DNA from: Candidatus Methanoperedens sp.
Lineage (GTDB): Archaea; Halobacteriota; Methanosarcinia; Methanosarcinales; Methanoperedenaceae
NCBI GenBank assembly: GCA_027460535.1
Contig: JAPZAR010000012.1
Span: 1-32,000, forward strand
Direction of reading: 5' to 3'
Length of the DNA: 32,000 bases
Shown: piece by piece, positions 2,067 through 20,338 of the stretch
Layout: each line of letters opens with the position of its first letter
How positions within the stretch are numbered: the stretch's first letter is position 1
Notes under the pieces: model-generated
Told to the model about the DNA's origin: nothing
What the model saw: only the letters and a program-made list of their open reading frames with translations
Database searches by the model: none
Program-made: the position numbers and the translations under genes

Positions 2067-3656
2067 TTATATAGTACCCCAGCTTTTAACGACGTCGATC
2101 AGCGCGAGTGGCTTCTCATATACCACATCCACTTTTCCATGGTCAAGATACACTAAGCCAGCATTTCCGTCCAGGGTGATTTCATCTCCTTCAGAAAGCT
2201 CCCGTCTGCCCAGCCGGCACTTATGATTGGGAACGTCAATATCAAGATCAGTGCAGTTCACAATACAGACCTTGCCCATCTGGCGGGCAACTACTGCAGC
2301 ATGTGAGGTTCTTGCCCCGCGGGCAGTGAGTATTCCTGCGCAGATGGCGATTCCCGGAATGTCGTCAGGGGTGACCATATCCCTGACCAGGATAACAGGC
2401 CCGTCAGCAGAGAACCTTTCCGCCACCTCGCCTGTGAATGCGATTCGACCAGAGACTACACCGCTGGACGCGGATATTCCCGCAGCAAGGGGAGAATCAT
2501 GAGAGATTACCTTCTGGATGCTGATAGATTCGATATCCACTTCTCGAAGCCTCTCCCGCGCTTCCTGCGGCGAGATGATTCCTTCCTGGCACAGCTCTAT
2601 GGCAATTCTAAGAGCCGCAAGCTGCGACCTCTTTCCGTCGCGGCTCTGGAGGATATAGAGCTTCCCCTCCTGCACCGTGAACTCTATATCCTGCATATCT
2701 TTAAAATGGGATTCGATCTTCCTGCCAACAGCAAGGAGTTCCTGATCTAACTGGGGCATGGTTTCCAGCAGCTCTCTCTGTGTGACGGTTGATCGTGCAC
2801 CGGATACCACATCCTCTCCCTGGGCTCCGAACTTGAAGTCGAGCAGGAGTTCGTTCTCCCCTGTCCAGGGGTTCCTCGTGAAGGCAACGCCTGCCCCGGA
2901 ACGCGGACCTATGTTCCCATAGACCATGGCCTGCACCGTGACAGCGGTCCCGCGGACATTATTCACCAGGTTCATCTTGCGGAATGCCTGCGCCCTGGGG
3001 TTCATCCAGGACCGAAGGACTTCGACCACAGCAAGCTCCAATTGTTCATGAACGTCCTCCGGGATCTTGTGGCCTCCCTCCAGAAATATCCTTTCATATT
3101 CCCCTGCAAGGCGCTTAAGACTGCTGGATTCCAGCTCCACTTCATCCAGTGCACCCTCTTTTTTCATGGCATCCTTTAAGAGCGATCTGTATTGCCCGGC
3201 GTCATGCGAGAACACTACTTCACCGAAGTTTTCCATCAGTCTCCTGTAGCAATCCCAGGAAAAGCGGGGGTTTCCTGTCAGGGATATCATTCTCCGAAGT
3301 GTTTCCCTGTTGAGACCCACGTTCAGCAATGTATCCATAACTCCGGGCATCGTGACCGGGGCACCGGATCTCACCGATACAAGAAGCGGTTTACGTCCGC
3401 CGAATATCAGTCCTGTGGCTCTCTCAATGAATGCGATTCCCTGACGCAGGAGGTCAGGCACGTCTCCGGGGAGTCTCCCTCCATTCCGGTAGTATTCCTC
3501 GCAGATTGAAACGTTCAAAGAGAAGCCGGGTGGAACTGGAATCCCAAGTTCTGCTATTCTCGCCAGATAAGCTGCCTTATTTCCGAAATCCTCAGATGTT
3601 ATCTCGCCCTGGCGGCCATGCCCGAACGTAACCATTCTTGGAACATCGCTTGGCAT
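2067..3656 (-). CDS. Pyruvate,phosphate dikinase homologue with only the ATP-grasp nucleotide-binding and phosphohistidine swivel domains; no PEP/pyruvate-binding TIM barrel
   Basis: PPDK signatures run along the whole length: LLVSVRSGAPVTMPGVMDTLLNVGLN, GNPRFSWDCYRRL, GAGVAFTRNPWTGE, AQGEDVVSG, DMQDIEFTVQEGKLYILQSRDGKR, and catalytic-His motif TARGARTSHAAVVARQMG. It is 529 aa versus about 870-880 aa for canonical PPDK. The ATG lies 5 nt after the upstream gene's stop. Confidence 0.8.
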   Translation of the reverse strand: MPSDVPRMVTFGHGRQGEITSEDFGNKAAYLARIAELGIPVPPGFSLNVSICEEYYRNGGRLPGDVPDLLRQGIAFIERATGLIFGGRKPLLVSVRSGAPVTMPGVMDTLLNVGLNRETLRRMISLTGNPRFSWDCYRRLMENFGEVVFSHDAGQYRSLLKDAMKKEGALDEVELESSSLKRLAGEYERIFLEGGHKIPEDVHEQLELAVVEVLRSWMNPRAQAFRKMNLVNNVRGTAVTVQAMVYGNIGPRSGAGVAFTRNPWTGENELLLDFKFGAQGEDVVSGARSTVTQRELLETMPQLDQELLAVGRKIESHFKDMQDIEFTVQEGKLYILQSRDGKRSQLAALRIAIELCQEGIISPQEARERLREVDIESISIQKVISHDSPLAAGISASSGVVSGRIAFTGEVAERFSADGPVILVRDMVTPDDIPGIAICAGILTARGARTSHAAVVARQMGKVCIVNCTDLDIDVPNHKCRLGRRELSEGDEITLDGNAGLVYLDHGKVDVVYEKPLALIDVVKSWGTI

Positions 3657-3661
3657 AAAAC

Positions 3662-5569
3662 CTATCTCCCTATGCTTTCGAGAATGTTTTCATGCATGAT
3701 GCCTGCAGCATTCGTGAGAGAACTTATAGATGTCATGATACTGCGGGTAAGCTCAAAGCAAACCAATAACCCCTTATCGTCCTCACTTTCCCTGAGGATC
3801 CCTTGCACAGTTTTCCGCAGCGCCTCATCACACTCCATTTCCAGGCCCATCACACTGTCCGAAGCCCTGAGGAAGTCCGCCATCTCATCACGGTTGTAAC
3901 CTTTATGAACTTCCCGGGCAGATATGAGGGCTTTTAAGAATTCCTGACTGCACCTCTGCGCTATCTCGGCCATTGTGCGCAGATCAGCATGGACTTCCCT
4001 TGATCCTGCATCCGGGAGAATGAGTGTGGCAAAGAACGACACCTCTTCGAGATGGTCAAGCGCATCGTCAGACGCGTTAATCAGCGCGGCAAAGAACGAT
4101 GCATCTTCAATCCTCCTGGAAAGGGCTCGAACCTTCTTCACGAGTTCATCTGCCTGACCTTCCCAGACCCGGACCTTCTGCGCACTGCGGGCTGCGACGT
4201 CCCCATCACGATGGAGAAGGGAATCGCTCACCGCGGTTGCTGCTTCGATTATGAGTGATGCATGCTCCTCGCACAATCCCATGAGATCATCATATGCGGA
4301 TCCGAGCTGTCCTAAGAGCTCAGCCTTTATTTCATTATGAATGAGAGATCGGGAATTGCCGGCCAAAAGATCGGTCGCTGCCGTCTGGAGCACCCACTGA
4401 AAATATTCCATGCACTTCTCACGGCCCAATCTTTGATGAAGTGGTTCTCCGCAGGGCACAGACAGTAAAAGGGCGTCATAGATGATCCTTTCCCCGCCCA
4501 GGTTGAAGAAAGCGATATGTCCAACCTCATTGTCTGCCGCCCATTTAAGAACTGTGATGCAGTCTTTATTGGGGAGGAAGTTCCCAAGCCGCTTACGTGC
4601 CCTGTTCCAGTCGATCAGGAACACTAGCCTTGATCCAAGGTGGGTAAAGAAGGCCCCAAGATCTGTCAGGTCCCTGGCCGTATATCTCCCTGTCAAGAGA
4701 TTATATGTCTCCTTTTCGAACTGATCACCGACGCGCTTTGATAGGGTATCCTCCCACTTCACATCCCATGCGTCGAAAAGGCTCTGGAAGAATTTTAGCC
4801 TGGGCACATGAATATCTGTGTGCACGATGGAGGCAGTCATTCCTTCGATGTTCACCACCAGCACATGCGCATCGGTCAAGCCTATATCGTTCTGAATGAC
4901 GAGCCTTGAGCCCATGCGCGTGGCGGTTGTCCCCAGGCCGGCGTGATCAAATTTGAGAGGTGCTGTGCGGTTAACCCCCGCCATGAACGCCCTGACCAGT
5001 ACCCTGTCGTTCTCCTCCAGCAGGTAGGTCATGGCCCCGTTGATATTCTCCTGCGAGAGCTCTCCCTGCATGGAATTCAGTACCCTGTGCATGTCCATCA
5101 CGAGGAGGTGGAGGCTGTCCCCGCTTTTTCGGTCGCCCGAAGTTATCTTCTGGAGAAACTGCTCGCTCAGGGCTTCTTCTCCGCCATCTGGCCAGCCCTC
5201 CAGTAGCTCTGTGAATCGTTTATCAAAATCGTGCGCCTCCCCACGTGCCAGAATGGGAAGAGACATCTCCTGCATGCATGCTTTTATAGCTGAGAGTATC
5301 TCTCCTGCATAGGGAATTCGATATGTCCCGGAACCAAGTCCTTCTGCCTCCTGCACTACACTATCAAGTAGCGCATTCTCAACCCTGGCAGTTTCCCTCT
5401 CTATTTTAAGACTGGGGAATTCACGGTCCGGATGCAGAGCACTGGACTGGGCTGTCTGGAGCAGCGTGAAATAGTACTTAATCCTGTCATTGGCCACAAG
5501 CGCCGCGTTCACTAGCTCAGGCAGGAGGAACTCTTCTTCGCCCATCTCTTTCAGGATATTCTTCTTCAT
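3662..5569 (-). CDS. 635-aa protein: unrecognised ~430-aa N-terminal region plus C-terminal PhoU_div/DUF47-like helical bundle
   Basis: The ORF track extends to 5680, but ATG 5569 (MKKNILKEMGEEE) forms an ATGA start/stop overlap with the upstream gene. The C-terminal ~200 aa align by eye with the window's own DUF47 protein (21111-21740): EGQADELVKKV/EHQGDDFVHEI, FAALINASDDALDHLEEVS/ISALASAFDDVLDYIDGTA, GLEMECDEALRKTVQGIL/RLENIADDIYKTSVAQLF. Confidence 0.6.
   Translation of the reverse strand: MKKNILKEMGEEEFLLPELVNAALVANDRIKYYFTLLQTAQSSALHPDREFPSLKIERETARVENALLDSVVQEAEGLGSGTYRIPYAGEILSAIKACMQEMSLPILARGEAHDFDKRFTELLEGWPDGGEEALSEQFLQKITSGDRKSGDSLHLLVMDMHRVLNSMQGELSQENINGAMTYLLEENDRVLVRAFMAGVNRTAPLKFDHAGLGTTATRMGSRLVIQNDIGLTDAHVLVVNIEGMTASIVHTDIHVPRLKFFQSLFDAWDVKWEDTLSKRVGDQFEKETYNLLTGRYTARDLTDLGAFFTHLGSRLVFLIDWNRARKRLGNFLPNKDCITVLKWAADNEVGHIAFFNLGGERIIYDALLLSVPCGEPLHQRLGREKCMEYFQWVLQTAATDLLAGNSRSLIHNEIKAELLGQLGSAYDDLMGLCEEHASLIIEAATAVSDSLLHRDGDVAARSAQKVRVWEGQADELVKKVRALSRRIEDASFFAALINASDDALDHLEEVSFFATLILPDAGSREVHADLRTMAEIAQRCSQEFLKALISAREVHKGYNRDEMADFLRASDSVMGLEMECDEALRKTVQGILRESEDDKGLLVCFELTRSIMTSISSLTNAAGIMHENILESIGR
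5373..5447. repeat. Copy A of a ~75-bp duplicated segment (inside the 5' part of the 635-aa gene)
   Basis: GCATTCTCAACCCTGGCAGTTTCCCTCTCTATTTTAAGACTGGGGAATTCACGG... matches 11134-11207 in the same orientation. By hand alignment 53 of the first 56 positions are identical, followed by weaker similarity with a 1-nt indel. Confidence 0.85.
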
Positions 5570-7080
5570 GGTACAAGGTCTAATGAAATTGCGAGGTCCC
5601 GATTGAATACCTTCTCGAACAGATCTCCTTTTTTCATGGCTCTGTCCTTCTCGGTTTCTGCTTCCCCTGAAATAGCACAATTGACAATCACCTGCTCGGG
5701 GGAAACCTCAGATGTGATATCTTTAACAAGGCTCTGCTGCGTGAAATCCAGTCCGTCCGCCACGCGAAGAATCGCTGACAGCGCCTTTACTTTCTGCCGC
5801 TCGTCCCGTCGCAGAGCAGCAAAGTACCGGTGCCCTTTATTTGGAAGTTCTCTCCTGTGGTAACGGGCGATTGAACCTACGATATTTCGTTCCCTTTCGT
5901 CAAAGGGAAGGTGCGGCTCGGCAAGGATGATGCGGAGTGAGGTCTTGTGATGCCCCTTCTGCCCTTCGATCCACCCGATATCATGAAGTATGCCGGCACA
6001 CTGGAGCCAGAAGCGTTCCTCGGCACCGAGGCCGTGAAGCTCTCCGAGTTCATCGAAGAGCCGCATAGCCAGCCTTGTCACCTGACTACTGTGCCCCTCA
6101 TTATAGGAAACGCTGCGAGCTGTCTTCCGAACTTCCTCCAGGCGGTTTTCATTCTTCTTTGATAGTTCCTGAGCCACCGCATCTGGTGATAGCCCCTGAA
6201 GAGTCATCTGGGCGAAAACCTCAGGAAGGCCGTTTTCCCGTATGGCTGCTGCGGCTTTCTCCACGTCATAGTCGACACGGTAGTGTTTCACTTCAAAGGG
6301 GTTTATCCACAGGATCGCGTAGCTGGCTCGAGGATCACCATCATCCTGCCTTCCTGCGCCCCCGGGGTTAATAAACCATACACCATCAACCTGACGGGAA
6401 AAGGGACGGTGCGAATGCCCGAAGATTATCACGTCAGCATCAGCGAGAAGAGCAAACTCACGAAGTTTTTCATCCGGCGTTTCAGGGCCTATTTCGGGCA
6501 AAGGGCTCCTGTGGGTAAGAAGTATTCGCTTTCCTCCAGCCTCCAGTCTGAGTTCCTCAGGCAGAGATTTGAGGTATTTGCGGTTCTTCTTAGAAAGATT
6601 GTTATATGTCCACTTGATGGCATTCCAGTCTTCAGGCGACTCTTTTTTCTCTCCCTCCTCTTCCTCTTTCTTTTCCTTGACCTTCAGAACCTTGAGGTCA
6701 TAGTTCCCAACCACGCTCTGGGCGTTCTCCTTGCGCAGTCTCCTGACAACATCATCCGGAAAAGCACCGTACCCCGTTAGGTCACCCACATTCCATATCT
6801 CTGAAACCTCTCTGTTGCTGGCATCTTCCAGGACAGACTTCAGGGCAGGCAGGTTGGCATGAACGTCCCCAATGAGTAGAAAGGCTTCGTGTTCTGCGGG
6901 TTGGGATAACTCCAGAGCAGGCAGGTTTGCAGTTTCTTTTTCTGCCTCAGCTTTCTTTATTTTTGTTTCTGCTTTAGCAAGTTTAGGTTTTGTCGTACTT
7001 CGCAGTATTTTAGGTCTCTCTTCCCACCACGAAGATACTTTGGTGTTCTTGCTTTTTTTCTTATCTTTCATATATTTCAC
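5566..7080 (-). CDS. Fusion protein: Lys-rich N-terminal tail, calcineurin-like metallophosphoesterase (YfcE/MJ0936-like) and PPX/GppA-type C-terminal HD module
   Basis: MPP motifs GDVHAN, VGDLTGYG, GNYD, LLTHRSP, GHSHRP, INPGGAG. The C-terminal ~190 aa parallel the C-terminus of the Ppx in this window: LHDIGW/LHDIGG, IARYHRRELPNKGH/VARFHRKKLPKRKD, ILRVADGLD/LLRLAEKLD. Confidence 0.75.
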   Translation of the reverse strand: MKYMKDKKKSKNTKVSSWWEERPKILRSTTKPKLAKAETKIKKAEAEKETANLPALELSQPAEHEAFLLIGDVHANLPALKSVLEDASNREVSEIWNVGDLTGYGAFPDDVVRRLRKENAQSVVGNYDLKVLKVKEKKEEEEGEKKESPEDWNAIKWTYNNLSKKNRKYLKSLPEELRLEAGGKRILLTHRSPLPEIGPETPDEKLREFALLADADVIIFGHSHRPFSRQVDGVWFINPGGAGRQDDGDPRASYAILWINPFEVKHYRVDYDVEKAAAAIRENGLPEVFAQMTLQGLSPDAVAQELSKKNENRLEEVRKTARSVSYNEGHSSQVTRLAMRLFDELGELHGLGAEERFWLQCAGILHDIGWIEGQKGHHKTSLRIILAEPHLPFDERERNIVGSIARYHRRELPNKGHRYFAALRRDERQKVKALSAILRVADGLDFTQQSLVKDITSEVSPEQVIVNCAISGEAETEKDRAMKKGDLFEKVFNRDLAISLDLVP

Positions 7081-7089
7081 ACTCCATAC

Positions 7090-8088
7090 TTATTTTACTT
7101 TTGCCTGATTCTTAGATTTTTCATCGAATGTTAACTGGATAAATTGCTTCGTGTCATTCCATATATTCTGCTCCTGAATATCTTTCCAGTATGCTACAAA
7201 CTCCTCGTATATCGCAGAACGGCGCTCGCGCAGATGCTGCTGGAAGTGCAGCAGTCCGGGCTCAAGAATCCCAAAGGAGTCGTCCTGCCCGAAATAATCA
7301 AGAGAATATGCCCGTTCATCATCCATGAATTGAGGCAAATATTCCATCCATACATCGCAGTCGTGCAGATCTCCGAGCATATCCTGGAGTTTTTTGCAGA
7401 CCAGAAGCTGGTTCTCCAGTTCCTCCTCGTAAAGGGGTGAAAACACCTCCATCGTGTAGCGAAGGCGCTTTACAGCAATACGCATGGCATGGTGCTCTTT
7501 TATATTTTCAGGGATGTAAACTGAGGCTTCATGAGCGAATATCTCATCAAGCCGCGTTGTTATGTGGACAATCGCTTTTTGATAAATCTTTGGAGAATTG
7601 ACTTCAGCTCTACCCTTGCGCATCTTACGGCACAACTTTTCCATATCCTCCGCCACGCCACTCTCATGAAGCCTGTCAATGGCCTCGATCACACGCGGTT
7701 GCGTCCGCTCCCTGCGCTGCCTGAGGCGCAGGAGGAAGCGCTGCGCACCAGGGCGGAGGCTTTCCTCTTTTAGCTTCTCGGTGTATGCCTTAAGGAAAGC
7801 TATCTGCACATCTGCATCCCGTGCCTCCCTAAGAGCGCGAGTGATATTGCGGATCTCTTTTCGCCAGTCCCTGTACTTCTTAGGAGGGAAACACTCTTCA
7901 AAAAGTGGAAGGCAGGAGCGGATCCGCCTTGATGCGACTCGCATCCTGTGAATGAACTCAATGTCCTTCGCCTCACGCACGCCTTCTATCTCCCTGGAAA
8001 GGGACCGAAGAAGCGGGCGAAGTCTATCCGCTCCGAAAAGGCAATATCCAGTGAAGTTTTTCAGAGATCCTTTCCTCTTAGAAATCAC
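7090..8088 (-). CDS. CHAD domain-containing protein
   Basis: Helical protein with CHAD signatures FIHRMRVASRRIRSCLPLF and HHAMRIAVKRLRYTMEVF. The GTG start at 8088 overlaps the ppk1 stop by 11 nt. Confidence 0.8.
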   Translation of the reverse strand: MISKRKGSLKNFTGYCLFGADRLRPLLRSLSREIEGVREAKDIEFIHRMRVASRRIRSCLPLFEECFPPKKYRDWRKEIRNITRALREARDADVQIAFLKAYTEKLKEESLRPGAQRFLLRLRQRRERTQPRVIEAIDRLHESGVAEDMEKLCRKMRKGRAEVNSPKIYQKAIVHITTRLDEIFAHEASVYIPENIKEHHAMRIAVKRLRYTMEVFSPLYEEELENQLLVCKKLQDMLGDLHDCDVWMEYLPQFMDDERAYSLDYFGQDDSFGILEPGLLHFQQHLRERRSAIYEEFVAYWKDIQEQNIWNDTKQFIQLTFDEKSKNQAKVK

Positions 8089-10321
8089 CGTGCCACAACC
8101 CCCTGTTCCCGATCAGCCACTCCTGCGAATTCATCTCTTTCTCTCCGGGAGAAAGTGTAACGCGCTCGTACGTACTATCGCTCAATAACCGCCTTGCTTT
8201 TACATTGTCCTTCAGGTGGACATTGAGTATATCCTTGATTATCACAGATTTTATATCCGGATCCTCCACAGGGAAGAGCGTTTCCACCCGGTCGTCAAAG
8301 TTCCGTGTCCTGAGGTCCGCACTTCCGAGCAGGACCTCTTCATCCCCGCCGTTTCTGAAATAGTATATTCGTGCGTGTTCGAGAAAACGTCCTACAATGG
8401 ATGTTACAGTGATATTCTCACTTACCCCCGGAATTCCGGGGCGAAGGGCGCACAGGGCGCGCACGTTCAGGTCGATTTTTACACCTGCTTGAGACGCCCT
8501 GTAAAGAGCCAGGATTATCTCCATGTCAGTTATGCCATTGTTCTTGAATGCCATATATCCGTCCCCGTGCTCTCTATGGCGTGTGATCTCTCTTTCGATG
8601 CGTCCCAGGAATTCCCGTCGCAAATCATAAGGCGCAACAAGGAGTTTGTGATACTTCTGCTTTCCATAATAACCTGTGAGTGCGTTGAAGAGGTGGGACA
8701 TATCTGCACAGATCTGCGGGTTGCAGGTAAAGTAGCCAAGGTCGCCATAGATCCTGGCTGTGACGGAATTGAAGTTCCCCGAACTAAGGTAACCGTATCG
8801 GATTATTTCCTTTCCTTCTCTCCTGACAACAAGGCATAATTTGGCATGAACCTTCAGTCCCGGTCTCCCGTATACCACATGCACACCCGCCCGCTCAAGT
8901 GCATGCCCCCACCCAATATTTTTTTCTTCATCGAAGCGCGCTGTCAGTTCCACAACAACAGCCACCTGCTTACCATTCTGCCGCGCCTTAATAAGTGCAT
9001 CAATGACGGGGGAATTGGCATCGATCCGGTAAAGCGTTATTTTTATAGCCAGCACATCAGGATCCTGTGCAGCCTGATGTAAGAATTTGATAAAGGGCAA
9101 AAAACTGTCATAAGGATAGTAGAACAGGACATCACGGTTGCGCATAGCCGGGAAAATTCTTTTTTCGTTATCTAAGAATGAAGGATTTGAAGGAAGAAAC
9201 TGTTTATCCTTCAGATCGGGGCGGTCCAGTCTCATCAATTCCCATAAATCTGCAGTCCCCATGATACCCTCTATATCACTGACCAGGTAGGAAGGCAGTG
9301 CAAGTTTATTGGCAAGCATGTGACGGATGTCGTCGGGCATGGATACATCCACTTCAAGCCTCACTGGCGGCCCGGTACGGCGAAACTCCATACTTTCCTC
9401 AACCTGGGTCGCAAGGTCATACTCCCCATTCAGATGAGCCTTAATTTCAGAATCGCGCGTGATGCGGAAAGGATACGATGCAACCACTTCCATGCCCGGG
9501 AAGAGCATGTCCAGATTTGCGGCAATGAGATCTTCAAGCAGGACGAAGTGGGTGTTTTTCCAGCTGGCAGCGCTGTGTTCGGTATTCTTACCGTTTTCCA
9601 CTTCCGGCACACCGATAAAGCGCGGGAATAAACAGGTGGGTACCTTGACGCGTGCAAACATTTGTTTTTCAAAGTTACCTTGAGTTACCCTGACCACAAC
9701 AGCAATATTGATCGTGAGATTGGAAATGAATGGAAAAGGATGAGCCGCATCGAATGCCAGAGGGGTTAGGGTCGGAAATATTTCATATTCGAAGAAGCGT
9801 CGCAGAAGAACCTTCTGTTCTTCCTCAAGGTCGCTATATCTGTCGATATGGATACCTTCGCTGTGGAGCTTTGGTAAGAGTTCATACCAGCCGCGTGCAT
9901 GATCAGCAATAAGTGGAATTAACTCTTTTTGAATCGCTTCCAGTTGTTCTGACGGTGACATCCTGTCAGGGCGTGCTTTGACCGTCCCTGTGGCACGCCG
10001 CAGGGATGAAACCCGAACCATGAAGAACTCATCGATGTTGCTTCCACAAATAGCCAGAAACTTCACTCTTTCCAGGACTGGCTGGCGCTCATCCATTGCT
10101 TCCTCAAGCACCCGCTGATTGAATTTGAGCCAGCTAAGCTCACTATTGATGAAGTTTCCGGGATCATCAAGAGAAACGCTTTCCGTACTGATTTTCAATG
10201 GCTTTTCAATAACACTCTCCTCGGAATTTATATCCATCTGTTGTTTTTCCATAATACAGGCATCCTGTTGATCAGTAGTAAATTTTCGACATCCCAATCC
10301 CGAAACTCCCTTTCTCATCAT
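8078..10321 (-). CDS. ppk1: Polyphosphate kinase 1
   Basis: Full-length PPK1 similarity: FINSELSWLKFNQRVLEEA, VKFLAICGSNIDEFFMVRV, TPLAFDAAHPFPFISNL, the phospho-His region GLKVHAKLCLVVRRE, and C-terminal PLD-like domains. The true start may be the internal MEKQQMD, 23 codons downstream. Confidence 0.9.
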   Translation of the reverse strand: MMRKGVSGLGCRKFTTDQQDACIMEKQQMDINSEESVIEKPLKISTESVSLDDPGNFINSELSWLKFNQRVLEEAMDERQPVLERVKFLAICGSNIDEFFMVRVSSLRRATGTVKARPDRMSPSEQLEAIQKELIPLIADHARGWYELLPKLHSEGIHIDRYSDLEEEQKVLLRRFFEYEIFPTLTPLAFDAAHPFPFISNLTINIAVVVRVTQGNFEKQMFARVKVPTCLFPRFIGVPEVENGKNTEHSAASWKNTHFVLLEDLIAANLDMLFPGMEVVASYPFRITRDSEIKAHLNGEYDLATQVEESMEFRRTGPPVRLEVDVSMPDDIRHMLANKLALPSYLVSDIEGIMGTADLWELMRLDRPDLKDKQFLPSNPSFLDNEKRIFPAMRNRDVLFYYPYDSFLPFIKFLHQAAQDPDVLAIKITLYRIDANSPVIDALIKARQNGKQVAVVVELTARFDEEKNIGWGHALERAGVHVVYGRPGLKVHAKLCLVVRREGKEIIRYGYLSSGNFNSVTARIYGDLGYFTCNPQICADMSHLFNALTGYYGKQKYHKLLVAPYDLRREFLGRIEREITRHREHGDGYMAFKNNGITDMEIILALYRASQAGVKIDLNVRALCALRPGIPGVSENITVTSIVGRFLEHARIYYFRNGGDEEVLLGSADLRTRNFDDRVETLFPVEDPDIKSVIIKDILNVHLKDNVKARRLLSDSTYERVTLSPGEKEMNSQEWLIGNRGLWHGDF

Positions 10322-10400: not shown

Positions 10401-10898
10401 TCAAGCGCATGCATCCACGGTATTTACTGCGCTCTGTGTCTCGGATTCATACTCTTCTCTTACAAACCCTTTTGAGACTTCAAACAAATCAGAAAGCCAT
10501 TTCTTACCATTATCATGGAAAATGATGGGAAGCTTCGCTTCCAGCGGTTTAAGCCTGTTTAAGAACTGCCCAACGGTCTCGGATTCGATCAGAATCTGGC
10601 AGAAGGGGTGCTCTGGATACGATATGCTGATCGCCTTAAGATAGACTAAAGGATCGCCGCCGTTCTCAATGAACTTACACATCATCTTAATGGGTGTGAA
10701 TTCAACATTGGTCGCTTCTTTGCCATTATCTGCAACACCTTCCACCATTCTGATAAAGTTATCCCAGCCGTTGCCATTCTCCCATTTTTTAAACCTCTCT
10801 TCAATGAGTAAAATGTCTCTTCTGTGAATCTTCTGAATGAGCTGGAGATCTTTCCTGTAAATCTCTTCTTTGAATAGCTCGATATTATCTAATTTCAT
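10401..10898 (-). CDS. Hypothetical protein (165 aa), no recognisable domain
   Basis: Clean ATG-initiated ORF, AT-rich. It ends 79 bp upstream of ppk1 on the same strand, and a copy of the TATAGATT-N12-TATATA module lies upstream of it. Confidence 0.5.
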   Translation of the reverse strand: MKLDNIELFKEEIYRKDLQLIQKIHRRDILLIEERFKKWENGNGWDNFIRMVEGVADNGKEATNVEFTPIKMMCKFIENGGDPLVYLKAISISYPEHPFCQILIESETVGQFLNRLKPLEAKLPIIFHDNGKKWLSDLFEVSKGFVREEYESETQSAVNTVDACA

Positions 10899-10996
10899 TA
10901 TATAGGCCTCCCAGTCCGTTTATCAGCTTCATGGGTCATTCCTTTTTTATCAGGTGGCAAAAACGAATGACCCTTAATTATTGTTAAAATTCTGAT

Positions 10997-11120: not shown

Positions 11121-12770
11121 TTATGCATGCAGTGCATTCTCAACCCCGGCAGTTTCCCTCCCTATTTTAAGACTGGAGAATTCACGGTTCCAATGAGAGC
11201 CCTGGATTACATTCAAATTGAGCTTCCTCCTGAATATTTTTTCGAATGCTTTCACATTCGACTCTACACCCCACACTTCAAGCTCGCAGCCGCCATCAGG
11301 CCATATAGCGAGATCGACTTTTGTTCTATCTTTCCCGGTGAATTCTGCCTTTTTTACGAGGCAGGTATGGCTTCTGTCGAGTTTCTCAGCAAGGCGCAGC
11401 AGCATGGATAGGATAATCACGGTATTCGCAGAGTGCTCATCGAGCAGAGCTAAAGCCTGGTCCTTTCTCTTTGGAAGCTTCTTCCTGTGGAACCTGGCAA
11501 CGTTTGCCATTATATTTATCTCGATCTGGTCAAAGCCGGGGAGCTCTGTGTTGCCTATTATGTAATGCGAGTGGAGATGATGACTTTTAAATGCTATGAA
11601 GCCGCCGATATCGTGCAGGAACGAAGAGTACTTCAATAGCTCCCTCTCCCGTTCATCCATGTCGTGCAGCCCGATCCTCCTAGAACTGTCAAAAAGCGAA
11701 AGTGCAAGAGATATGACAGCGTTGGCGTGCCGCTCGTTGATATTGCATGATCTTCCAAGCTGGAGCACGCTCATCTCCCTGACAGACATCTCCTGGAACT
11801 GCGGAAACCCTTCATGTTTTGACAGGTAATCCATGAGCATTCCGTGGACTATGCCCCTGTCGCTGATTGTAATCTCTTCAAGCCCGAACTCCTCCATTAT
11901 TGTCTCGAGGATAGCAGCGCCCCCAACGATTATGTCCGCTCTCTCGGGGTTGATTCCCTGGATCTTCTTTCTCTCATCGAGGGCAAGCGCGCAGAGTGTC
12001 GAAACTACCTTCCTTAGATTCTTGTAGTTCAGGACAAGGTTTCTTCCTGCGCCGTCCCGTTCATGCAGATTCATCGCTATCTCGGCCAGGTTAACGATAG
12101 TGCCTGAACTTCCGAAAGCGCACTCTATCCTCGCACTCTTCATGAATTGAGCTGTTTTGAGAATTCTGTTCTTGATGTACAGCTTCATCCTTGCATAAAC
12201 ATCCTGTGGCACAGGTGCTGTCCCCCCATCCTGAATGAACCTAGTAGTGAGCCTTATTGCCCCTAGTTCGAAGCTGTCGACGTAATATTGCTGGAACTGA
12301 TCGCCTATCGCAAGCTCCGTGCTCCCTCCCCCTATATCGATGAAGATTGCCTTCCTCTTGCCAATATGGACTCCGCTCGAGACCCCAAGATAGATGAGAC
12401 GTGCCTCTTCCTTTCCAGGTATGACCCTGACTTCCAGCTTCGCCTCATCTTTTAGCTGTTCAAGGAATTCTACCTGGTTTTTCGCCTCCCGTGCCGCAGA
12501 AGTGGCTATAGCGATAATCTCTCCAGCGCCGAAGGATTTTGCGAGTTCCGCGAACTTTTTGCAAACCAGAACCGCTCGCTCCATTGCCTCTGGCTGGAGG
12601 TGATTGCTCTTGAACTCGTTCTCGCCGAGCCTGACAACCTCCTTCTCCTGCCGCAGCACAGTATACGAATGATTGGGGTTGAGTCTGACGAGTATAAGTC
12701 GGATAGAGTTTGTCCCAATATCTATGAACGCCAGTATCTTTTCCTCAAGTTGATCAAGGTGCATTCTCAT
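11121..12770 (-). CDS. ppx: Exopolyphosphatase / guanosine pentaphosphate phosphohydrolase family (Ppx/GppA) with C-terminal HD domain
   Basis: ASKHA N-terminus AFIDIGTNSIRLILV, FIDIGGGSTEL, then HD module FLHDIGGFIAFKSHHLHS and VARFHRKK. The ORF is open to 12905, but the first 45 codons are AT-rich and low-complexity, so ATG 12770 or 12764 is preferred. The last ~25 codons come from a duplicated DNA segment (see repeat features). Confidence 0.85.
   Translation of the reverse strand: MRMHLDQLEEKILAFIDIGTNSIRLILVRLNPNHSYTVLRQEKEVVRLGENEFKSNHLQPEAMERAVLVCKKFAELAKSFGAGEIIAIATSAAREAKNQVEFLEQLKDEAKLEVRVIPGKEEARLIYLGVSSGVHIGKRKAIFIDIGGGSTELAIGDQFQQYYVDSFELGAIRLTTRFIQDGGTAPVPQDVYARMKLYIKNRILKTAQFMKSARIECAFGSSGTIVNLAEIAMNLHERDGAGRNLVLNYKNLRKVVSTLCALALDERKKIQGINPERADIIVGGAAILETIMEEFGLEEITISDRGIVHGMLMDYLSKHEGFPQFQEMSVREMSVLQLGRSCNINERHANAVISLALSLFDSSRRIGLHDMDERERELLKYSSFLHDIGGFIAFKSHHLHSHYIIGNTELPGFDQIEINIMANVARFHRKKLPKRKDQALALLDEHSANTVIILSMLLRLAEKLDRSHTCLVKKAEFTGKDRTKVDLAIWPDGGCELEVWGVESNVKAFEKIFRRKLNLNVIQGSHWNREFSSLKIGRETAGVENALHA
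11134..11207. repeat. Copy B of the ~75-bp duplicated segment (3' end of ppx, up to 13 bp from its stop codon at 11121-11123)
   Basis: GCATTCTCAACCCCGGCAGTTTCCCTCCCTATTTTAAGACTGGAGAATTCACGG... On the minus strand it encodes HWNREFSSLKIGRETAGVENAL, versus HPDREFPSLKIERETARVENAL in the 635-aa protein. Confidence 0.85.
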
Positions 12771-12951
12771 ATAATTATAATCATGATTAGGTTCTATTAT
12801 ATCATGTTTTCTACCGTTGCCATTTCCATCCCCTTCAATACGGTCTGGGCAAGGACTCAACTTGCTAAAATTAAAGCCCCCACAAAATGTTTTCATAGCG
12901 TTCATTCAAGTGTTAATTAAATCTTAGTCAGAGGTTTTTAAATAACTTATG

Positions 12952-13601: not shown

Positions 13602-14495
13602 ATGGAAAATATCGAACAGAAGAATCATATTGGCAAAGCAGATATTCACGTACACACCAGGTATTCAGGGTTCGGACAATGTTCTTTTATTCATTTCCCT
13701 GAATCTGTTACCGAGCCAGTTAAAGCCGTCGAGGCTGCCCGCAGGAAAGAACTTGATGTCCTTTGCATAACAGACCACAACACAATCCGGGGTGCTATCA
13801 TCGCCCAAAAACATTCACGGGATATCGAGGTTGTAGTTGGAGAAGAGATTTCAAGCGCAGACGGAGAGATCCTGGCGCTGTTCATCCAGGAAGAGATCAA
13901 ACCCATGCGCAGCGCTCCTGAGACTATAGACCTTATACACGGCCAGGGAGGTATTGCTATAGCTGCACATCCTTTTAGCCCATATTGCCACTCTCTCGAA
14001 ACTAAAATACATAATTTAAAACTGGACGGAGTGGAAGTATTCAATGCATACCATCGTGATGCCTACTCTAATTTAATGGCCCAGACCTTCACTTCAGGAA
14101 GACTGGCAAAGCTGGGGAGCAGCGATGCCCATTCAATAAATATGATAGGCAACGGATACACAATTTTTGAGGGAAAAACCTCAGAGGAACTTAGGAAATC
14201 CATCATAAACAGAAAAACCTCCTTTGGCGGAACAAGAACGCCTCTGTCAGAATGCATTTCGTGGAGCAAAGAAATAGCCTCGGAGAGCATTAAAATGATT
14301 TATGATTCCCTGACAGGAGAGAAAAGCCAGGACATATTATACTTGGAAATAGATAAAACTACAAGAAGGACCAAAGCCCTGGGATTGATTGGCGCTGCAC
14401 TGTATATCGGGCTACCATTATCGTATTTTTTCGGTGTCTCGGGGGAAATTATCTTGAATTTAAAGGGTAAAAGAAAATGGAATGAGAACATATAG
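13602..14495 (+). CDS. PHP-domain metal-dependent phosphoesterase with C-terminal transmembrane anchor
   Basis: PHP motifs ADIHVHTRYS, CITDHNTIRGA, GEEISSADGEILALF, IAAHPFSP, GVEVFNAY, GSSDAHS. C-terminal hydrophobic helix ALGLIGAALYIGLPLSYFFGV. Confidence 0.8.
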   Translation: MENIEQKNHIGKADIHVHTRYSGFGQCSFIHFPESVTEPVKAVEAARRKELDVLCITDHNTIRGAIIAQKHSRDIEVVVGEEISSADGEILALFIQEEIKPMRSAPETIDLIHGQGGIAIAAHPFSPYCHSLETKIHNLKLDGVEVFNAYHRDAYSNLMAQTFTSGRLAKLGSSDAHSINMIGNGYTIFEGKTSEELRKSIINRKTSFGGTRTPLSECISWSKEIASESIKMIYDSLTGEKSQDILYLEIDKTTRRTKALGLIGAALYIGLPLSYFFGVSGEIILNLKGKRKWNENI

Positions 14496-15084: not shown

Positions 15085-15492
15085 ATGATTGACCATCCAA
15101 AATTTTTCAAAAAAATTACTGATTCCATTGTTACCATCGTCCTGTATATATTGCTGTTAACCCTTATCGCAGGGATGCTGCGGATTTTACTTGATATGCG
15201 CTCTGTGGCGATAGACTCGGTGGAGGGCGGTTTTAACAAAATAGTTACTAATGTTCTCACGCTTTTTATTGTAATTGAGTTCTTCAAAACCTTTGCAGAC
15301 TATTCGAAACTCGAAAGAATCAAACTCACCGACATAACCGACGTCACGATTTTAATAGCTATGCGTGAGGTCACTGTCGGGCTTTACTCCAAATCATTTG
15401 GATATGAAACTATTTTCGCCCTCTCAGCGCTGCTGCTGGTGCTTGGAGTGATAAGGATGCTGGCTGTAAAGTACTCGCCAGAAAAGATTTGA
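15085..15492 (+). CDS. psiE: PsiE-like (phosphate-starvation-inducible protein E family) small membrane protein
   Basis: 135 aa with four hydrophobic segments. Length and layout match PsiE (VLTLFIVIEFFKTFADY, VTILIAMREVTVG). Family assignment is from memory of E. coli PsiE, not from a search. Confidence 0.55.
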   Translation: MIDHPKFFKKITDSIVTIVLYILLLTLIAGMLRILLDMRSVAIDSVEGGFNKIVTNVLTLFIVIEFFKTFADYSKLERIKLTDITDVTILIAMREVTVGLYSKSFGYETIFALSALLLVLGVIRMLAVKYSPEKI

Positions 15493-16620: not shown

Positions 16621-17724
16621 ATGAATCGATTAAAGATAATACTAATTTTGATTCTGGCAGGCGTGCTGGTAGCTGGGTGTGTAAGCACGCCGCCTGCCCA
16701 AGTACAGCCTACAGTACAAACAACGGCGCAGCCTCCGGCAACTATAACCTTAAATGGTGCGGGTGCAACATTTCCATACCCTCTGATATCCAAATGGAGT
16801 TCGGAACATAGCAAAATAAATCCAAATATCCAGATCAATTATCAGAGCGTGGGAAGCGGTGCGGGAATACAGCAGATAACTGCAAAAACGGTAGATTTTG
16901 GCGCAAGTGATGCGCCTCTCTCAGAGCAGGTATATAAAAATCTTACAGGCATCCTGCAAATACCCGAAACCATAGGTGCAGTGGTCGTAGCGTATAACCT
17001 GCCCGGCATACAGAAGGGAGTGAATTTGAGCGGCGATGTAATTGCTGACATTTTCCTTGGAAAAATCACAAAATGGAACGACCCGAGGATAGTCTCACTT
17101 AATCCTGATATTCAATTCCCGCCAAAAGACATTATCGTAGCACACAGGAGCGATGGAAGCGGCACGACTTTCGTATTCACGGATTATCTTTCAGCGGTAA
17201 GCCCTGACTGGAAATCACAGGTTGGAAAAGGTACATCAGTCAACTGGCCTGTCGGTCTTGGCGGGAAAGGCAACGAGGGCGTTGCAGGTATCTTGAGCCA
17301 GAACCCTTACGCTATAGGGTATGTCGAACTTATCTATGCCAAGGCTCAGAACAACATCTCCTATTCATATATCAAGAACAAGGCAGGGATATTCATTGAA
17401 CCCACACTTGAGACAACGGCAAGCGCCGTTGCTGGAGCTGTGCCAACGCTGCCCGCAGGCGACGCAAGCTGGTCATCCGTAAGTGTTGTGAATGCCCCGG
17501 GAGACAATTCATACCCCATAAGCAGCTTTACCTATCTTCTTGTCTACAAAAACCAGGCAGAACTGACCAAGGGTAAAGCACTGGCTGAATTCCTCTGGTG
17601 GGCAGTACACGATGGACAGAGTTATTCCTCCGATCTCCAGTATGTGACGCTGCCAAAAGAAGTCGTAAGTCTGAATGAAAAAACCATAAAACTTATGAAC
17701 TACAACGGACAACCGCTAATCTAG
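16621..17724 (+). CDS. pstS: Phosphate ABC transporter substrate-binding lipoprotein
   Basis: Signal peptide with lipobox LVAGC, then PstS pattern GAGATFPYPL, YQSVGSGAGI, DFGASDAPL, HRSDGSGTT. Confidence 0.9.
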   Translation: MNRLKIILILILAGVLVAGCVSTPPAQVQPTVQTTAQPPATITLNGAGATFPYPLISKWSSEHSKINPNIQINYQSVGSGAGIQQITAKTVDFGASDAPLSEQVYKNLTGILQIPETIGAVVVAYNLPGIQKGVNLSGDVIADIFLGKITKWNDPRIVSLNPDIQFPPKDIIVAHRSDGSGTTFVFTDYLSAVSPDWKSQVGKGTSVNWPVGLGGKGNEGVAGILSQNPYAIGYVELIYAKAQNNISYSYIKNKAGIFIEPTLETTASAVAGAVPTLPAGDASWSSVSVVNAPGDNSYPISSFTYLLVYKNQAELTKGKALAEFLWWAVHDGQSYSSDLQYVTLPKEVVSLNEKTIKLMNYNGQPLI

Positions 17725-18729
17725 ATGGATAGATCGAGATTGCCTTCTTTCCGTATCAGCCGGAGCAAACTCTCAGGCGATTTTATTTTTGAAGCTGTAG
17801 TCGGCTCATTTGCTCTGGGAATAATAATCCTTGCAATTTTATTGTTCAGGGAACTTTTTATAGAGTCTCAACTTTCAAGAGATGCTTTTGGCACGGGTTT
17901 TTTGACAGGTTCTGTATGGGATCCAGTGAAAGAGGTATTCGGCGCCCTGCCTTTTATCTTCGGGACTCTTGTTTCATCATTCCTTGCCCTGCTCATAGCT
18001 GTCCCATTTAGCCTCGGGATAGCGATATTTCTCTCAGAACTCGCTCCGGAAAAGCTGAGGACGCCCCTATCTTTCATCATAGAATTGCTTGCCGCCGTCC
18101 CAAGCGTCATTATCGGGCTCTGGGGCATATTCATTCTCGCCCCGTTCATCCACGACTATCTTGCGCCGCCTCTTTCAACATATCTTGGTTTTCTGCCGCT
18201 CTTCCAGGGACCAATGTACGGTCCGTCCATGCTTACCGGTGGCATGATACTTGCAATAATGATTATCCCGATAACCTCATCGGTGTCTAAGGAAGTCCTC
18301 ATGACAGTGCCGACGCAACAGCGGGAAGCAGCCATCGCTCTCGGCGCTACAGGCTGGGAGACCACACGGATTGCGGTACTCCCCTATGCCAGATCTGGAA
18401 TATTCGGGGCGGTAATTCTTGGATTTGGACGTGCTATCGGCGAAACAATGGCAGTAACCATGGTCATCGGGAACAGCCACCACATCAAGGCATCCCTTTT
18501 CGCGCCATCAGATACCATGGCATCGGTTATTGCAAACGAGTTAATGGAGGCACCGTCCAAGCTTTACGTCTCATCTCTTATTGAGATCGGGTTTTTGCTT
18601 CTGGTGATATCCGTCATAATCAACATAGCAGCCAGGATTTTGGTGTGGAAGTTTGATGAATCCAATGATATCCACCTTTTTAGACGGATTCGTCAAATGC
18701 TTAATGTGGAAGGAGGCGAGAGGGCATGA
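17725..18729 (+). CDS. pstC: Phosphate ABC transporter permease PstC
   Basis: Polytopic permease with the EAA-type loop REAAIALGATGWETTRIAVLPYARSGI. The ATG directly follows the pstS stop. Confidence 0.9.
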   Translation: MDRSRLPSFRISRSKLSGDFIFEAVVGSFALGIIILAILLFRELFIESQLSRDAFGTGFLTGSVWDPVKEVFGALPFIFGTLVSSFLALLIAVPFSLGIAIFLSELAPEKLRTPLSFIIELLAAVPSVIIGLWGIFILAPFIHDYLAPPLSTYLGFLPLFQGPMYGPSMLTGGMILAIMIIPITSSVSKEVLMTVPTQQREAAIALGATGWETTRIAVLPYARSGIFGAVILGFGRAIGETMAVTMVIGNSHHIKASLFAPSDTMASVIANELMEAPSKLYVSSLIEIGFLLLVISVIINIAARILVWKFDESNDIHLFRRIRQMLNVEGGERA

Positions 18730-19562
18730 AATGGAATAAAAGAAAATTAATTGACCGAACTATGTCCTTCCTGACCGCCGCCTGCGTTGCTATCGCCATA
18801 ATCCCACTGCTGAGCATCCTCTACACAGTAACCATCAATGGGATATCATCTATAAACCCGGATTTTCTTACACAGCTCCCCAAACCTGTGGGTGAAGCAG
18901 GAGGCGGGCTTGGGAACGCTATCCAGGGGACATTTATAGTCGTAGGGATTGCCTGCTTAATCGGGCTTCCCATAGGCATTCTTTCAGGGATATATCTTTC
19001 AGAATATGGGGCAAACAGGTTTGGACGTTTTGTAAGTTTCGTGGCTGATGTCCTCACCGGCACGCCCTCGATAGCTGCAGGGATGTTCGGTTATACCTTC
19101 ATAGTCCTTTATTTTGGAAGCTTCTCTGCAATTGCAGGCGGGGTAGCTCTCTCTGTATTGATGATCCCCATTGTTACGAGAACTACCGAGGAGTCCCTCA
19201 AACTTGTGCCTGGATCAATTAAAGAAGCTTCCCTTGCCCTTGGGATACCGCGGTGGAAAACAACATTATATATTGTTTTGAGCACTGCCAGGAGCGGTAT
19301 AATCACTGGAGCATTACTGGCAATCGCAAGAATATCTGGTGAGACCGCGCCTCTCCTTTTCACTTCATTTGGGAACATGTTCTGGGCTAGCGGAATAGAC
19401 AAACCAATATCGACACTGCCGGTGCAGATTTACACATATGCAATAACACCCTTCCCTGACTGGCATGCCAAAGCCTGGGGAGGAGCCCTCATTCTGATCA
19501 TTCTGATTCTTATTTTAAATATTGGTGTGAGGTTCATTATCAGAAGAAGATATTCAGTGTAA
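18726..19562 (+). CDS. pstA: Phosphate ABC transporter permease PstA
   Basis: Permease with [34 protein letters not shown] overlap with pstC. Confidence 0.9.
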
Positions 19563-19578
19563 GAATAGGAGTATAAAA

Positions 19579-20337
19579 GTGCAGAATAAGATTACCGTTG
19601 AAGCCCTCAATGCATGGTTCGGAACAAAGCATGTTCTAAAAGATATTGATCTTGGTTTCCAGGAAAACAGGATAACCGCCATCATAGGCCCTTCCGGATG
19701 CGGAAAATCCACATTTATCCGATGCCTCAACCGGATGCATGAAGTTGTACCCAGGGCAAAAGTCTCAGGAAAAGTACTGGTTGATGGCAAGGATATCTAT
19801 GAAAGCGATGTCGACCCTGTAGACATAAGAAGGCGCATAGGTATGGTATTCCAGAAGCCCAACCCTTTCCCTACGATGTCTATTAGTGATAATGTTGTGG
19901 CTGGATTGAAGCTCAGTGGAGTGAAAGATAAAAAGATCCTTGATAACATTGCCGAGGAGAGTCTAAAAAAAGCCGCACTATGGGACGAAGTGAAGAATGA
20001 CCTCAATAAATCGGGTGTGAGTCTGTCAGGCGGTCAGCAGCAGCGTCTCTGCATCGCAAGAGCATTAGCTGTTGAGCCAGAGGTTATCCTGTTTGACGAA
20101 CCCTGCTCAGCTTTAGACCCTATATCCACAAGCAAGATTGAAGATTTAATGATGGAACTGAAAGAAAAATATACCCTTATTATAGTAACGCATAATATGC
20201 AGCAGGCAGCAAGGGTAAGCGATTTTACAGCTTTCTTTCTTTATGGAGAGTTAATAGAGTTTGGAGAAACAAATCAGATATTTAAGAAGCCACAGGAAAA
20301 GAGTACCGAGGATTACATAGTCGGGAGGTTTGGATAA
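19579..20337 (+). CDS. pstB: Phosphate ABC transporter ATP-binding protein PstB
   Basis: Walker [10 protein letters not shown], signature [14 protein letters not shown], Walker [13 protein letters not shown]-loop VTHNM. GTG start. Confidence 0.95.
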
Positions 20338-20338
20338 T

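Follow-up and report, generated by a model that had tools for sequence, protein, structure and literature searches.

A 32,000-nucleotide stretch of Candidatus Methanoperedens sp. DNA (assembly GCA_027460535.1, contig JAPZAR010000012.1, positions 1 to 32,000 of the forward strand; referred to below as the window) carries a compact minus-strand group of five genes. These encode a polyphosphate kinase (PPK1), a CHAD protein, a fusion of a metallophosphoesterase with an HD domain (MPP::HD), an orphan protein of 635 amino acids (aa) that we call X, and a homologue of pyruvate, phosphate dikinase (PPDK) that lacks the phosphoenolpyruvate (PEP)/pyruvate domain and that we call PPDKt. The conserved unit is formed by the last two genes, X and PPDKt, and not by all five. 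The X-PPDKt pair is probably a device, not described so far, that transfers or senses phosphate. Our preferred reading, to which we give a probability of roughly 0.4, is that X and PPDKt would together make up a split dikinase whose second half-reaction takes place on X and which would link polyphosphate with AMP and pyrophosphate (PPi) on the one side and ATP and phosphate (Pi) on the other.

X and PPDKt are inherited together

Relatives of the pair were searched for in one genome per species, and at least 556 were confirmed among the 600 matching stretches listed, which places the pair in hundreds of archaeal and bacterial species. The neighbourhood counts given below cover the best 79 loci (78 of them distinct), in which PPDKt was located by tblastn with the window proteins; individual scanned loci are designated by L-numbers and database protein clusters by P-numbers. 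The archaeal carriers among these loci belong to Methanoperedens, Methanomicrobiales, Methanosarcinaceae, Methanomassiliicoccales and Nitrososphaerales, and the bacterial ones to Burkholderiales, Thiobacillus, Geobacteraceae, Planctomycetota, Acidimicrobiaceae and Dongiaceae. Ca. Accumulibacter and Ca. Methylophosphatis, which accumulate polyphosphate, are among the carriers from Burkholderiales.

In 74 of the 75 loci that have room for it, a PPDKt gene on the same strand immediately follows X; four of the five exceptions among the 79 loci are contig edges. The sole locus with downstream room and without PPDKt next to X is L057 (9905-11941), from a metagenome-assembled genome of Methanospirillum, where PPDKt may lie elsewhere in the genome or may have been lost. 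The median distance between the two genes is 8 nt over 72 pairs, and it does not exceed 25 nt in 62 of them. Such tight spacing is, taken alone, ordinary for an operon; the part that is not due to chance is that these two genes are conserved in both archaea and bacteria. Pairwise identities of X and of PPDKt are strongly correlated (r = 0.95, 51 loci), which indicates that the two are inherited and transferred as a unit, and both are equally conserved (mean identity 0.48 for X and 0.49 for PPDKt).

In at least 85 database clusters X and PPDKt are found in a single chain of ca. 1190-1240 aa; the named members are from Solirubrobacteraceae, and the contigs are up to 3.5 Mb long. The domain order in these chains, as determined with Pfam, is X, PhoU_div, PPDK_N and PEP-utilizers, with an Ala/Pro-rich linker of ca. 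45 aa. Since the two proteins are fused into one chain so many times, they can be expected to work together. Judged by its position in the scanned loci and by these fusions, X is an obligate partner of PPDKt.

PPDKt looks competent for the first half of the dikinase reaction

In Pfam searches PPDKt contains PPDK_N and the PEP-utilizers mobile domain, the latter with 76 bits. The protein aligns with residues ca. 4-509 of the 874 residues of PPDK and ends ca. 25 aa past the swivel domain; when compared with solved PPDKs by phmmer, it gives an E value of ca. 1e-114 across the ATP-grasp and the swivel phospho-histidine domains. No match to PEP-utilizers_C, the PEP/pyruvate TIM barrel, was found in PPDKt by the profile search, and the claim of the original prediction that the protein lacks an acceptor domain is supported. 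The score against TIGR01828, the model of full-length PPDK, is 513, below the cut-off of 843, and that against NCBIfam NF004531 is 401 bits, under the 456-bit cut-off. The latter model (NF004531/PRK05878, PPDK of ca. 530 aa) is one that we take to describe the family of the mycobacterial protein VadK.

According to alignment with 9pzl and 1kbl, PPDKt retains equivalents of PPDK residues K22, R92, G101, M103, R135, D321, E323, Q335, R337 and T453-S454-H455. In 52 PPDKt orthologues the equivalents of K22, R92, G101, R135, E323, Q335, R337, T453 and H455 are invariant, and 71-85% conservation is found for those of M103, D321 and S454. The histidine predicted to be phosphorylated is His452 (codon 2301-2303), which lies in the motif GARTSHAAVVAR; the sequence TSHAAV was confirmed at 2292-2309. 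Two residues of the C-terminal tail, P516 and W526, are invariant as well. From these residues PPDKt looks catalytically competent for the first half-reaction.

Among the 70 complete PPDKt orthologues, 68 are 526-570 aa long, and the two outliers (425 and 984 aa) reflect masked runs of N. Because complete orthologues have this length and no full-length PPDK is found in relatives, the truncation is taken to be ancestral and not specific to this strain. The low TIGR01828 score could also be expected of a PPDK that decays in this strain only, in which case the operon-like packing would be incidental. Full-length PPDK in orthologous loci, named in the original prediction as the sign of such decay, was not seen, and the conserved length, the invariant catalytic residues and the natural X::PPDKt fusions rule this explanation out for practical purposes.

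X joins a largely new N-terminal region to a PhoU-like bundle

The public annotation of X (MCZ7356466.1, hypothetical protein) has 672 aa and begins at a TTG, which makes a 115-nt overlap with the upstream gene (window 3662-5680). The family alignment supports the ATG at 5569, and a protein of 635 aa, over the annotated TTG. At least 3896 homologues of X are found at E ≤ 1e-3 in a database clustered at 90% identity, and its relatives make up 1006 clusters at 50% identity. Searches of Pfam, NCBIfam and PDB sequences with phmmer and with profiles gave no match for the window protein.

The AlphaFold2 (AF2) model of X has a mean predicted local distance difference test score (pLDDT) of 84.5. Residues 1-420 are modelled as helices, a beta region of ca. 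10 strands and then further helices; on this predicted secondary structure we reject a TIM-barrel replacement as the fold of the region. Foldseek searches of PDB and BFVD with two AF2 models found no significant relative of the N-terminal region, no Pfam family matched it across 33 family members, and hhalign comparison of X with the PPK1, CHAD and DUF47 proteins of the window gave nothing significant. The first ca. 420 residues are without Pfam family, PDB sequence or known fold, and X is, by these searches, largely new.

The N-terminal region is marked by the motifs DSLHxxxxDxH, FDHxGLGTTATR, QNDIGxTDAH, TDxHxxR and GSRxVFLIDWNRARK, which contain invariant His, Asp and Arg. In an alignment of 63 archaeal and bacterial sequences ca. 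50 polar residues of X are invariant, 7 His among them; the invariant positions include H154, H161, H209, H235, H254, H351, H436, D151, D228, D252, D320, R257, R314, R325 and K326.

The C-terminal part of the model superposes on crystal structures of DUF47/PhoU proteins (Foldseek template modelling scores of 0.85 for 3l39, 0.81 for 2iiu and 0.78 for 2olt, with 4q25 also matched). Its motifs E470xxxD474, D501-D502-x-x-D505-x-x-E508 and E577xxxD581xxxR585 are conserved. Pfam PhoU_div (PF01865) has no match in the window protein; 10 of 33 close homologues match it at E < 1, and more distant homologues exceed its threshold of 24.4 (e.g. P0164 with 34.7 and P0375 with 34.4). Judging from the Pfam scores of homologues, the superposition of the model and the conserved ExxxD motifs, the C-terminus of X is a PhoU-like/DUF47 bundle. 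The DNA that encodes it contains a 30-nt imperfect direct repeat (4019-4108, 80% identical, 60-nt spacing), which probably reflects two similar helices of the bundle.

X-PPDKt and polyphosphate genes

In Isosphaeraceae, proteins of ca. 1000 aa have CHAD at residues 27-254 and, behind it, X in its full length. In the one readable context such a CHAD::X gene is followed by a separate gene for a PPDKt of 541 aa. According to PMC6537752, CHAD is a polyphosphate-binding module. Since X is fused to this characterised module, the CHAD::X proteins are domain-level evidence that X acts at polyphosphate.

Polyphosphate genes (PPK1, CHAD, PPX, HD domain III and MPP) lie within 10 kb of the pair in 15 of the 78 distinct loci, from at least 8 families. 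In Methanoperedens (the window, L004 and L029) the order is PPX, 165-aa gene, PPK1, CHAD, MPP::HD, X, PPDKt. In Methanoregula (L010) it is CHAD::HD, X, PPDKt, and in Geobacteraceae (L061) and Dongiaceae (L065) it is a thymidylate-kinase-like gene, CHAD, PPX, X, PPDKt. In L088, PPX, X and PPDKt are overlapping genes, with a PPK1::His_Phos_1 fusion 4 kb away; direct overlap of PPX with X is found in several operons. The fused X::PPDKt of the actinobacterial locus L086 has MPP and HD genes upstream and CHAD downstream, and in Methanoculleus the pair is convergent with PPK1, CHAD::MPP, HD and PPX. That the polyphosphate genes are arranged so differently argues against simple inheritance of one operon. 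Together with the CHAD::X fusions, these neighbours show that the link of X-PPDKt with polyphosphate, also proposed in the original prediction, is real. Pst/PhoU genes are found near the pair in about a dozen loci.

Some of the neighbours deserve mention in their own right. The thymidylate-kinase-like gene heads the operon in L061 (915-1595) and L065 (620-1300). Polyphosphate kinases of the PPK3 type are thymidylate-kinase-like and are located in operons with ppx, CHAD and SixA genes (PMC12995831), and the gene of L061 and L065 may be a bacterial PPK3-like gene. The fusion in L088 (14329-16995, 888 aa) joins PPK1 to His_Phos_1, of the histidine phosphatase superfamily; this fusion and the SixA of PPK3 operons are hints that phospho-histidine phosphatases recur with polyphosphate genes. 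A P-type cation ATPase (Cation_ATPase_N/C, E1-E2) is encoded just 3' of PPDKt on the same strand in 4 of 5 Burkholderiales loci (e.g. L047, 3965-6574); in the CHAD::X contig it is on the other strand. CorA is found near X-PPDKt in L086 and L088. These cation transporter genes may be linked to the counter-cations of polyphosphate.

Relation to known systems

X-PPDKt belongs with the swivel-histidine dikinase superfamily. PPDK itself (EC 2.7.9.1) has the ATP-grasp and swivel His domains, the residues of the first half-reaction and the T-S-H motif in common with PPDKt; it differs in its C-terminal PEP/pyruvate TIM barrel, which every complete PPDKt orthologue lacks. Moreover, the acceptor barrel of PPDK is C-terminal, whereas X is encoded upstream of PPDKt, is N-terminal in the fusions and has an unrelated and mostly novel fold. 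Rifampin phosphotransferase, glucan water dikinase and PigC/RedH use the same ATP-grasp and swivel His domains to deliver the beta-phosphoryl group to an exchangeable second site. These families are found among the weaker profile and fold matches, glucan water dikinase through an alpha-glucan water dikinase domain, and PEP synthase is matched as well. Phenylphosphate synthase is a further enzyme of the superfamily with an alternative or split acceptor module. Unlike X-PPDKt, these relatives with alternative acceptors have neither a PhoU-like or X-type module nor an association with polyphosphate genes.

The C-terminal ca. 210 residues of X share the six-helix fold and paired ExxxD motifs with PhoU/DUF47 proteins (PhoU_div, YkaA). 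PhoU proteins regulate Pst and PhoR. Classical DUF47 is a stand-alone protein of ca. 210 aa encoded beside Pit, as in the pair at 21111-22754 of the window, whereas the bundle of X stands behind a 420-aa region and is coupled to a dikinase. With the polyphosphate kinases PPK1, PPK2 and PPK3 the pair shares genomic company, namely operons with CHAD and PPX (PPK1 in the window and L088, possibly a PPK3-like protein in L061). PPK1 works via a phospho-histidine intermediate. None of the three families is related to X-PPDKt in sequence or fold, and the nucleotide product proposed for X-PPDKt is AMP with PPi and not ADP.

Among characterised proteins VadK (Rv1127c), a truncated PPDK from Mycobacterium tuberculosis, is the closest analogue; it autophosphorylates, dependent on ATP and Mg, on the His equivalent to His452 (PMC13400623). 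It is reported to be a regulatory histidine kinase that binds metabolic enzymes and is tied to the methylcitrate cycle, and it co-purifies with its tightly bound operonic partner Rv1126c (PMC13400623). VadK shows the same two-domain truncation as PPDKt, which with its 529 aa and PPDK_N and PEP-utilizers only falls within the ca. 490-530 aa of this architecture, and it likewise has an operonic partner protein. The two differ in that VadK is methylcitrate-linked and its partner is encoded downstream, whereas PPDKt is phosphate-linked and X is encoded upstream. We found no description of the X-PPDKt pair or of a link between CHAD and a dikinase in the literature, which does not prove that there is none; the original prediction had likewise not recognised a described module here, and its proposal that the 635-aa protein is the partner of the PPDK homologue agrees with the gene order and the fusions.

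Proposed mechanism and alternatives

In the first step of the proposed reaction, the ATP-grasp domain of PPDKt would phosphorylate His452 of the swivel domain according to ATP + Pi + His <-> AMP + PPi + His~P, which would be reversible. This step is suggested by the conserved residues and by the biochemistry of PPDK and VadK; for the chemistry of PPDK the source is Herzberg et al. 1996, as cited in PMC13400623. In the second step the swivel domain would carry the phosphoryl group to X, where the His/Asp/Arg-rich domain of ca. 420 aa would be the acceptor/donor site and the PhoU-like bundle would bind phosphate or metal-phosphate. In the third step, suggested by genomic association, the acceptor/donor would be a phosphoanhydride at the polyphosphate granule, most simply the end of a polyphosphate chain. 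The net reaction would be polyP(n+1) + AMP + PPi <-> polyP(n) + ATP + Pi (polyP, polyphosphate), i.e., a PPDK-like salvage of AMP and PPi with polyphosphate in place of PEP. Polyphosphate, PPi or Pi is favoured as the acceptor/donor because of the fusion of X with CHAD, the overlap of PPX with X in several operons and the enzyme-like conservation of X. In Methanoperedens, the pair has been joined to the PPK1-CHAD-MPP::HD module, probably by insertion of the latter between PPX and X. The strongest form of this proposal, in which X-PPDKt is a fourth type of polyphosphate kinase (a "polyphosphate, phosphate dikinase" that makes ATP from AMP and PPi at the expense of polyphosphate, or works in reverse, by means of a swivelling phospho-histidine and a new catalytic domain), we consider rather unlikely.

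Several observations weigh against a split dikinase acting on polyphosphate. The cell already encodes PPK1, PPK2 and PPX for polyphosphate turnover, and 63 of the 78 scanned pairs have no polyphosphate gene within 10 kb (e.g. L002, L085 and L087), so that the acceptor need not be polyphosphate. The known role of the PhoU and DUF47 families is in regulation and not in catalysis. The beta region of X gives weak Foldseek matches (probability 0.5-0.7, not trusted) to YbjN-like proteins; YbjN is described in the tool output as a putative transcription regulator, and its fold is one that we take to be a protein-binding scaffold. In the AF2 model of a natural fusion of ca. 1200 aa, the domains are predicted confidently one by one and not relative to each other (predicted template modelling score 0.50), i.e., there is no confident docking of X on the dikinase. 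The PPDK half of this model superposes best on the Clostridium symbiosum PPDK crystals 1kbl and 1dik (root-mean-square deviation 3.2-3.4), presumably the conformer with the His domain at the ATP-grasp site. Histidine kinases, GGDEF, EAL, SpoIIE and anti-sigma-like ATPases are encoded beside some bacterial pairs. Finally, VadK, the one characterised truncated PPDK, is described as a regulatory kinase.

Much of this evidence would suit a phospho-histidine sensor, the main alternative, which we regard as possible, if somewhat unlikely. In such a device His452~P would report the product of ATP and Pi against that of AMP and PPi, X would bind phosphorylated PPDKt or be phosphorylated by it, and X, through its PhoU-like domain, would control how polyphosphate is made and degraded (PPK1, PPX, MPP::HD), or how phosphate is taken up, but would not turn polyphosphate over itself. 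VadK, the sole studied truncated PPDK, is reported to be regulatory and to have an operonic partner (PMC13400623). X ends in a PhoU-like domain, and PhoU proteins are regulatory; signalling genes are frequent neighbours of bacterial pairs, and most pairs are away from polyphosphate enzymes, as would be the case for a global regulator. The N-terminal domain of X, however, shows the conservation of an enzyme, and many of its His, Asp and Arg are invariant; X also has neither a DNA-binding domain nor an obvious output domain. The fusion with CHAD, moreover, would put X on the polyphosphate granule in the way of the hydrolases CHAD::MPP and CHAD::HD.

The same CHAD::X fusion is hard to explain without a role at the polyphosphate granule, which together with the PPX genes that overlap X makes it distinctly unlikely that X-PPDKt, as a dikinase, serves a different acceptor bound by the N-terminal domain of X, for example a metabolite or the side chain of a protein. 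The PhoU-like domain would then only make the enzyme phosphate-responsive, and the polyphosphate neighbours would reflect shared regulation. The dikinase superfamily has repeatedly swapped acceptor modules, the N-terminal domain of X has no detectable relative to constrain its substrate, and the scarcity of polyphosphate neighbours would be no difficulty here; no biosynthetic or catabolic genes, however, recur beside X-PPDKt in the neighbourhoods of the scanned loci. That PPK1, CHAD, MPP::HD, X and PPDKt are one obligatory five-component machine is still less probable. Although the packing of the five genes resembles translational coupling, their order is kept in Methanoperedens (L004 and L029), and CHAD, MPP and HD are found near the pair, differently arranged, in other lineages, most scanned loci have X-PPDKt but not the other three genes, and PPK1 followed by MPP::HD occurs without X-PPDKt. 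A 70-nt repeat around the ppk1 module, considered with the PPX-X adjacency elsewhere, suggests secondary insertion.

Polyphosphate is a store of phosphate and energy in many microbes, including those of biological phosphorus removal and methane cycling, and the enzyme families known to synthesise or consume it are few. X-PPDKt would either connect polyphosphate with the AMP/PPi/ATP pool by a new route or sense phosphate and energy status in a new way. If a fourth kinase type exists, its carriers would be anaerobic methane oxidisers, methanogens, archaea that oxidise ammonia, and polyphosphate accumulators of wastewater such as Ca. Accumulibacter. The comparison also newly defines a conserved domain of ca. 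420 aa without family or fold assignment, and it shows that truncated PPDKs with dedicated partner proteins are a broad phenomenon that extends beyond mycobacterial VadK.

The operon and its surroundings in the window

Features of the window are collected in Table 1. Base-by-base reading located the five minus-strand genes and their junctions exactly where the original prediction had placed them. The TAA of ppk1 (8078-8080) lies within GTGATTTCTAA, which creates an 11-nt overlap with the CHAD gene, whose GTG is at 8088. Between the CHAD stop and GTG 7080 of MPP::HD there is a gap of 9 nt; ATG 7071, which is preceded by GGAG at a distance of 10 nt, would serve equally well as a start and is the one used in database cluster P0406 (501 aa). 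The junction of MPP::HD and X is an ATGA overlap (5566-5569) and that of X and PPDKt a 5-nt gap (3657-3661). Just after the PPDKt stop, a hairpin followed by T-runs likely marks the end of the transcription unit.

Table 1. Coordinates of genes, protein regions and DNA elements in the 32,000-nt window
Feature	Positions	Strand	Basis or remark
Hairpin (ATTCCTGG...CCAGGAAT) followed by T-runs	1940-2012	minus	just after PPDKt stop; read from the sequence
PPDKt (529 aa)	2067-3656	minus	PPDK_N + PEP-utilizers
X (635 aa)	3662-5569	minus	partner of PPDKt
X, PhoU-like/DUF47 six-helix bundle, residues ca. 425-635	3665-4297	minus	Foldseek; Pfam in homologues
X, N-terminal region, residues ca. 1-420	4310-5569	minus	AF2 model, conservation
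MPP::HD fusion (504 aa; 501 aa from ATG 7071)	5566-7080	minus	Pfam/NCBIfam domains
CHAD protein (332 aa)	7090-8088	minus	Pfam CHAD
PPK1 (747 aa)	8078-10321	minus	four PPK1 Pfam domains + TIGR03705
165-aa gene	10401-10898	minus	no family match; Methanoperedens only (L004, L029)
70-nt direct repeat, copy 1, in X (codons 46-69)	5365-5434	minus	
70-nt direct repeat, copy 2, at 3' end of PPX	11126-11195		
PPK2	1079-1891	plus	convergent with operon; Pfam PPK2, E 8e-64
PPX/GppA, full-length (594 aa)	11121-12905	minus	upstream of operon; Pfam Ppx-GppA + domain III
PHP-domain genes	13602-14495 and 23090-23734		
PsiE	15085-15492		
AP_endonuc_2 gene			within phosphate island
PstS, PstC, PstA, PstB, PhoU	16621-20992		
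Stand-alone DUF47	21111-21740		
Pit	21789-22754		
TFB gene	24065-25096		

Profile searches on all five proteins returned the domain architectures that had been claimed, with the PhoU_div/DUF47 part of X being recognised through homologues and fold and not by Pfam in the window protein. The polyphosphate kinase contains the complete set of four PPK1 Pfam domains and scores 792 bits with TIGR03705 (cut-off 466), and the CHAD protein scores 184.5 bits with PF05235 (threshold 25.6). MPP::HD has Metallophos_2 at residues 68-258, a YfcE-type metallophosphoesterase half (TIGR00040, 61.6 against 56.25), and Ppx-GppA_III/HD at residues 315-449; of PPX it has domain III (HD) only, without the N-terminal catalytic Ppx-GppA domains of the ASKHA fold. 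The view of this fusion as an unusual one did not hold, as the family has 868 homologues at E ≤ 1e-10. Its members are annotated merely as "YfcE family phosphodiesterase", and their role in polyphosphate metabolism appears uncharacterised. The Methanoperedens copies have an additional Lys-rich N-terminal extension of ca. 65 aa (MKDKKKSKNTK...KIKKAEAEKE, window 6880-7071), which could be a polyphosphate-binding tail; bacterial homologues, which cover 86% of the query, are without it.

In bacterial polyphosphate operons an MPP::HD gene is regularly the last one; it directly follows ppk1 and overlaps its stop, without X and PPDKt, in L083 (3852-7437) and L084 (3827-7359), where the operon has the form CYTH-CHAD, (ADK), PPK2, PPK2, PPK1, MPP::HD. 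PPK1 and MPP::HD are a separately conserved module of bacterial polyphosphate operons, and the operon of the window is two modules joined. The gene order anticipated in the original prediction is accordingly conserved across archaea and bacteria for the X-PPDKt pair, and for all five genes in Methanoperedens only (L004 and L029).

The 165-aa gene upstream of ppk1 had been suggested as a sixth member under a Pho-like promoter. No Pfam or NCBIfam domain was recognised in its product and the gene is specific to Methanoperedens; it is no conserved sixth member, and its membership in the system is doubtful. Upstream of it we find TATA-like elements and one 15-nt inverted repeat (GGGTCATTCCTTTTT / AAAAACGAATGACCC, 11-nt spacer, 10933-10973), ca. 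25 nt 5' of the gene start. This repeat is not shared by other phosphate-gene promoters of the window, the motif count does not exceed that in shuffled sequences, and the promoter suggestion is not supported.

The operon is surrounded by a phosphate island of ca. 22 kb (window ca. 1-23 kb). The genes of the operon itself had been read correctly in the original prediction, while PPX, PPK2, PsiE, PstSCAB-PhoU and DUF47-Pit in the same window had been missed. The last 26 residues of PPX copy residues 44-69 of X (hhalign E 1.8e-4). At the DNA level this is a direct repeat of 70 nt, whose copies are 87% identical, lie 5761 nt apart and enclose, besides the start of X, the 165-aa gene and the genes of PPK1, CHAD and MPP::HD. 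The X-like tail of PPX is also found in a second Methanoperedens genome (L029, 4209-4303). Since X immediately follows PPX in Geobacteraceae and in L088, the repeat can be seen as a scar left when the ppk1 module was inserted between these two genes, which is the simplest reading. The repeated stretch is among the most conserved in X (E57, R58 and D69 are invariant); an alternative is that PPX and X share a docking peptide.

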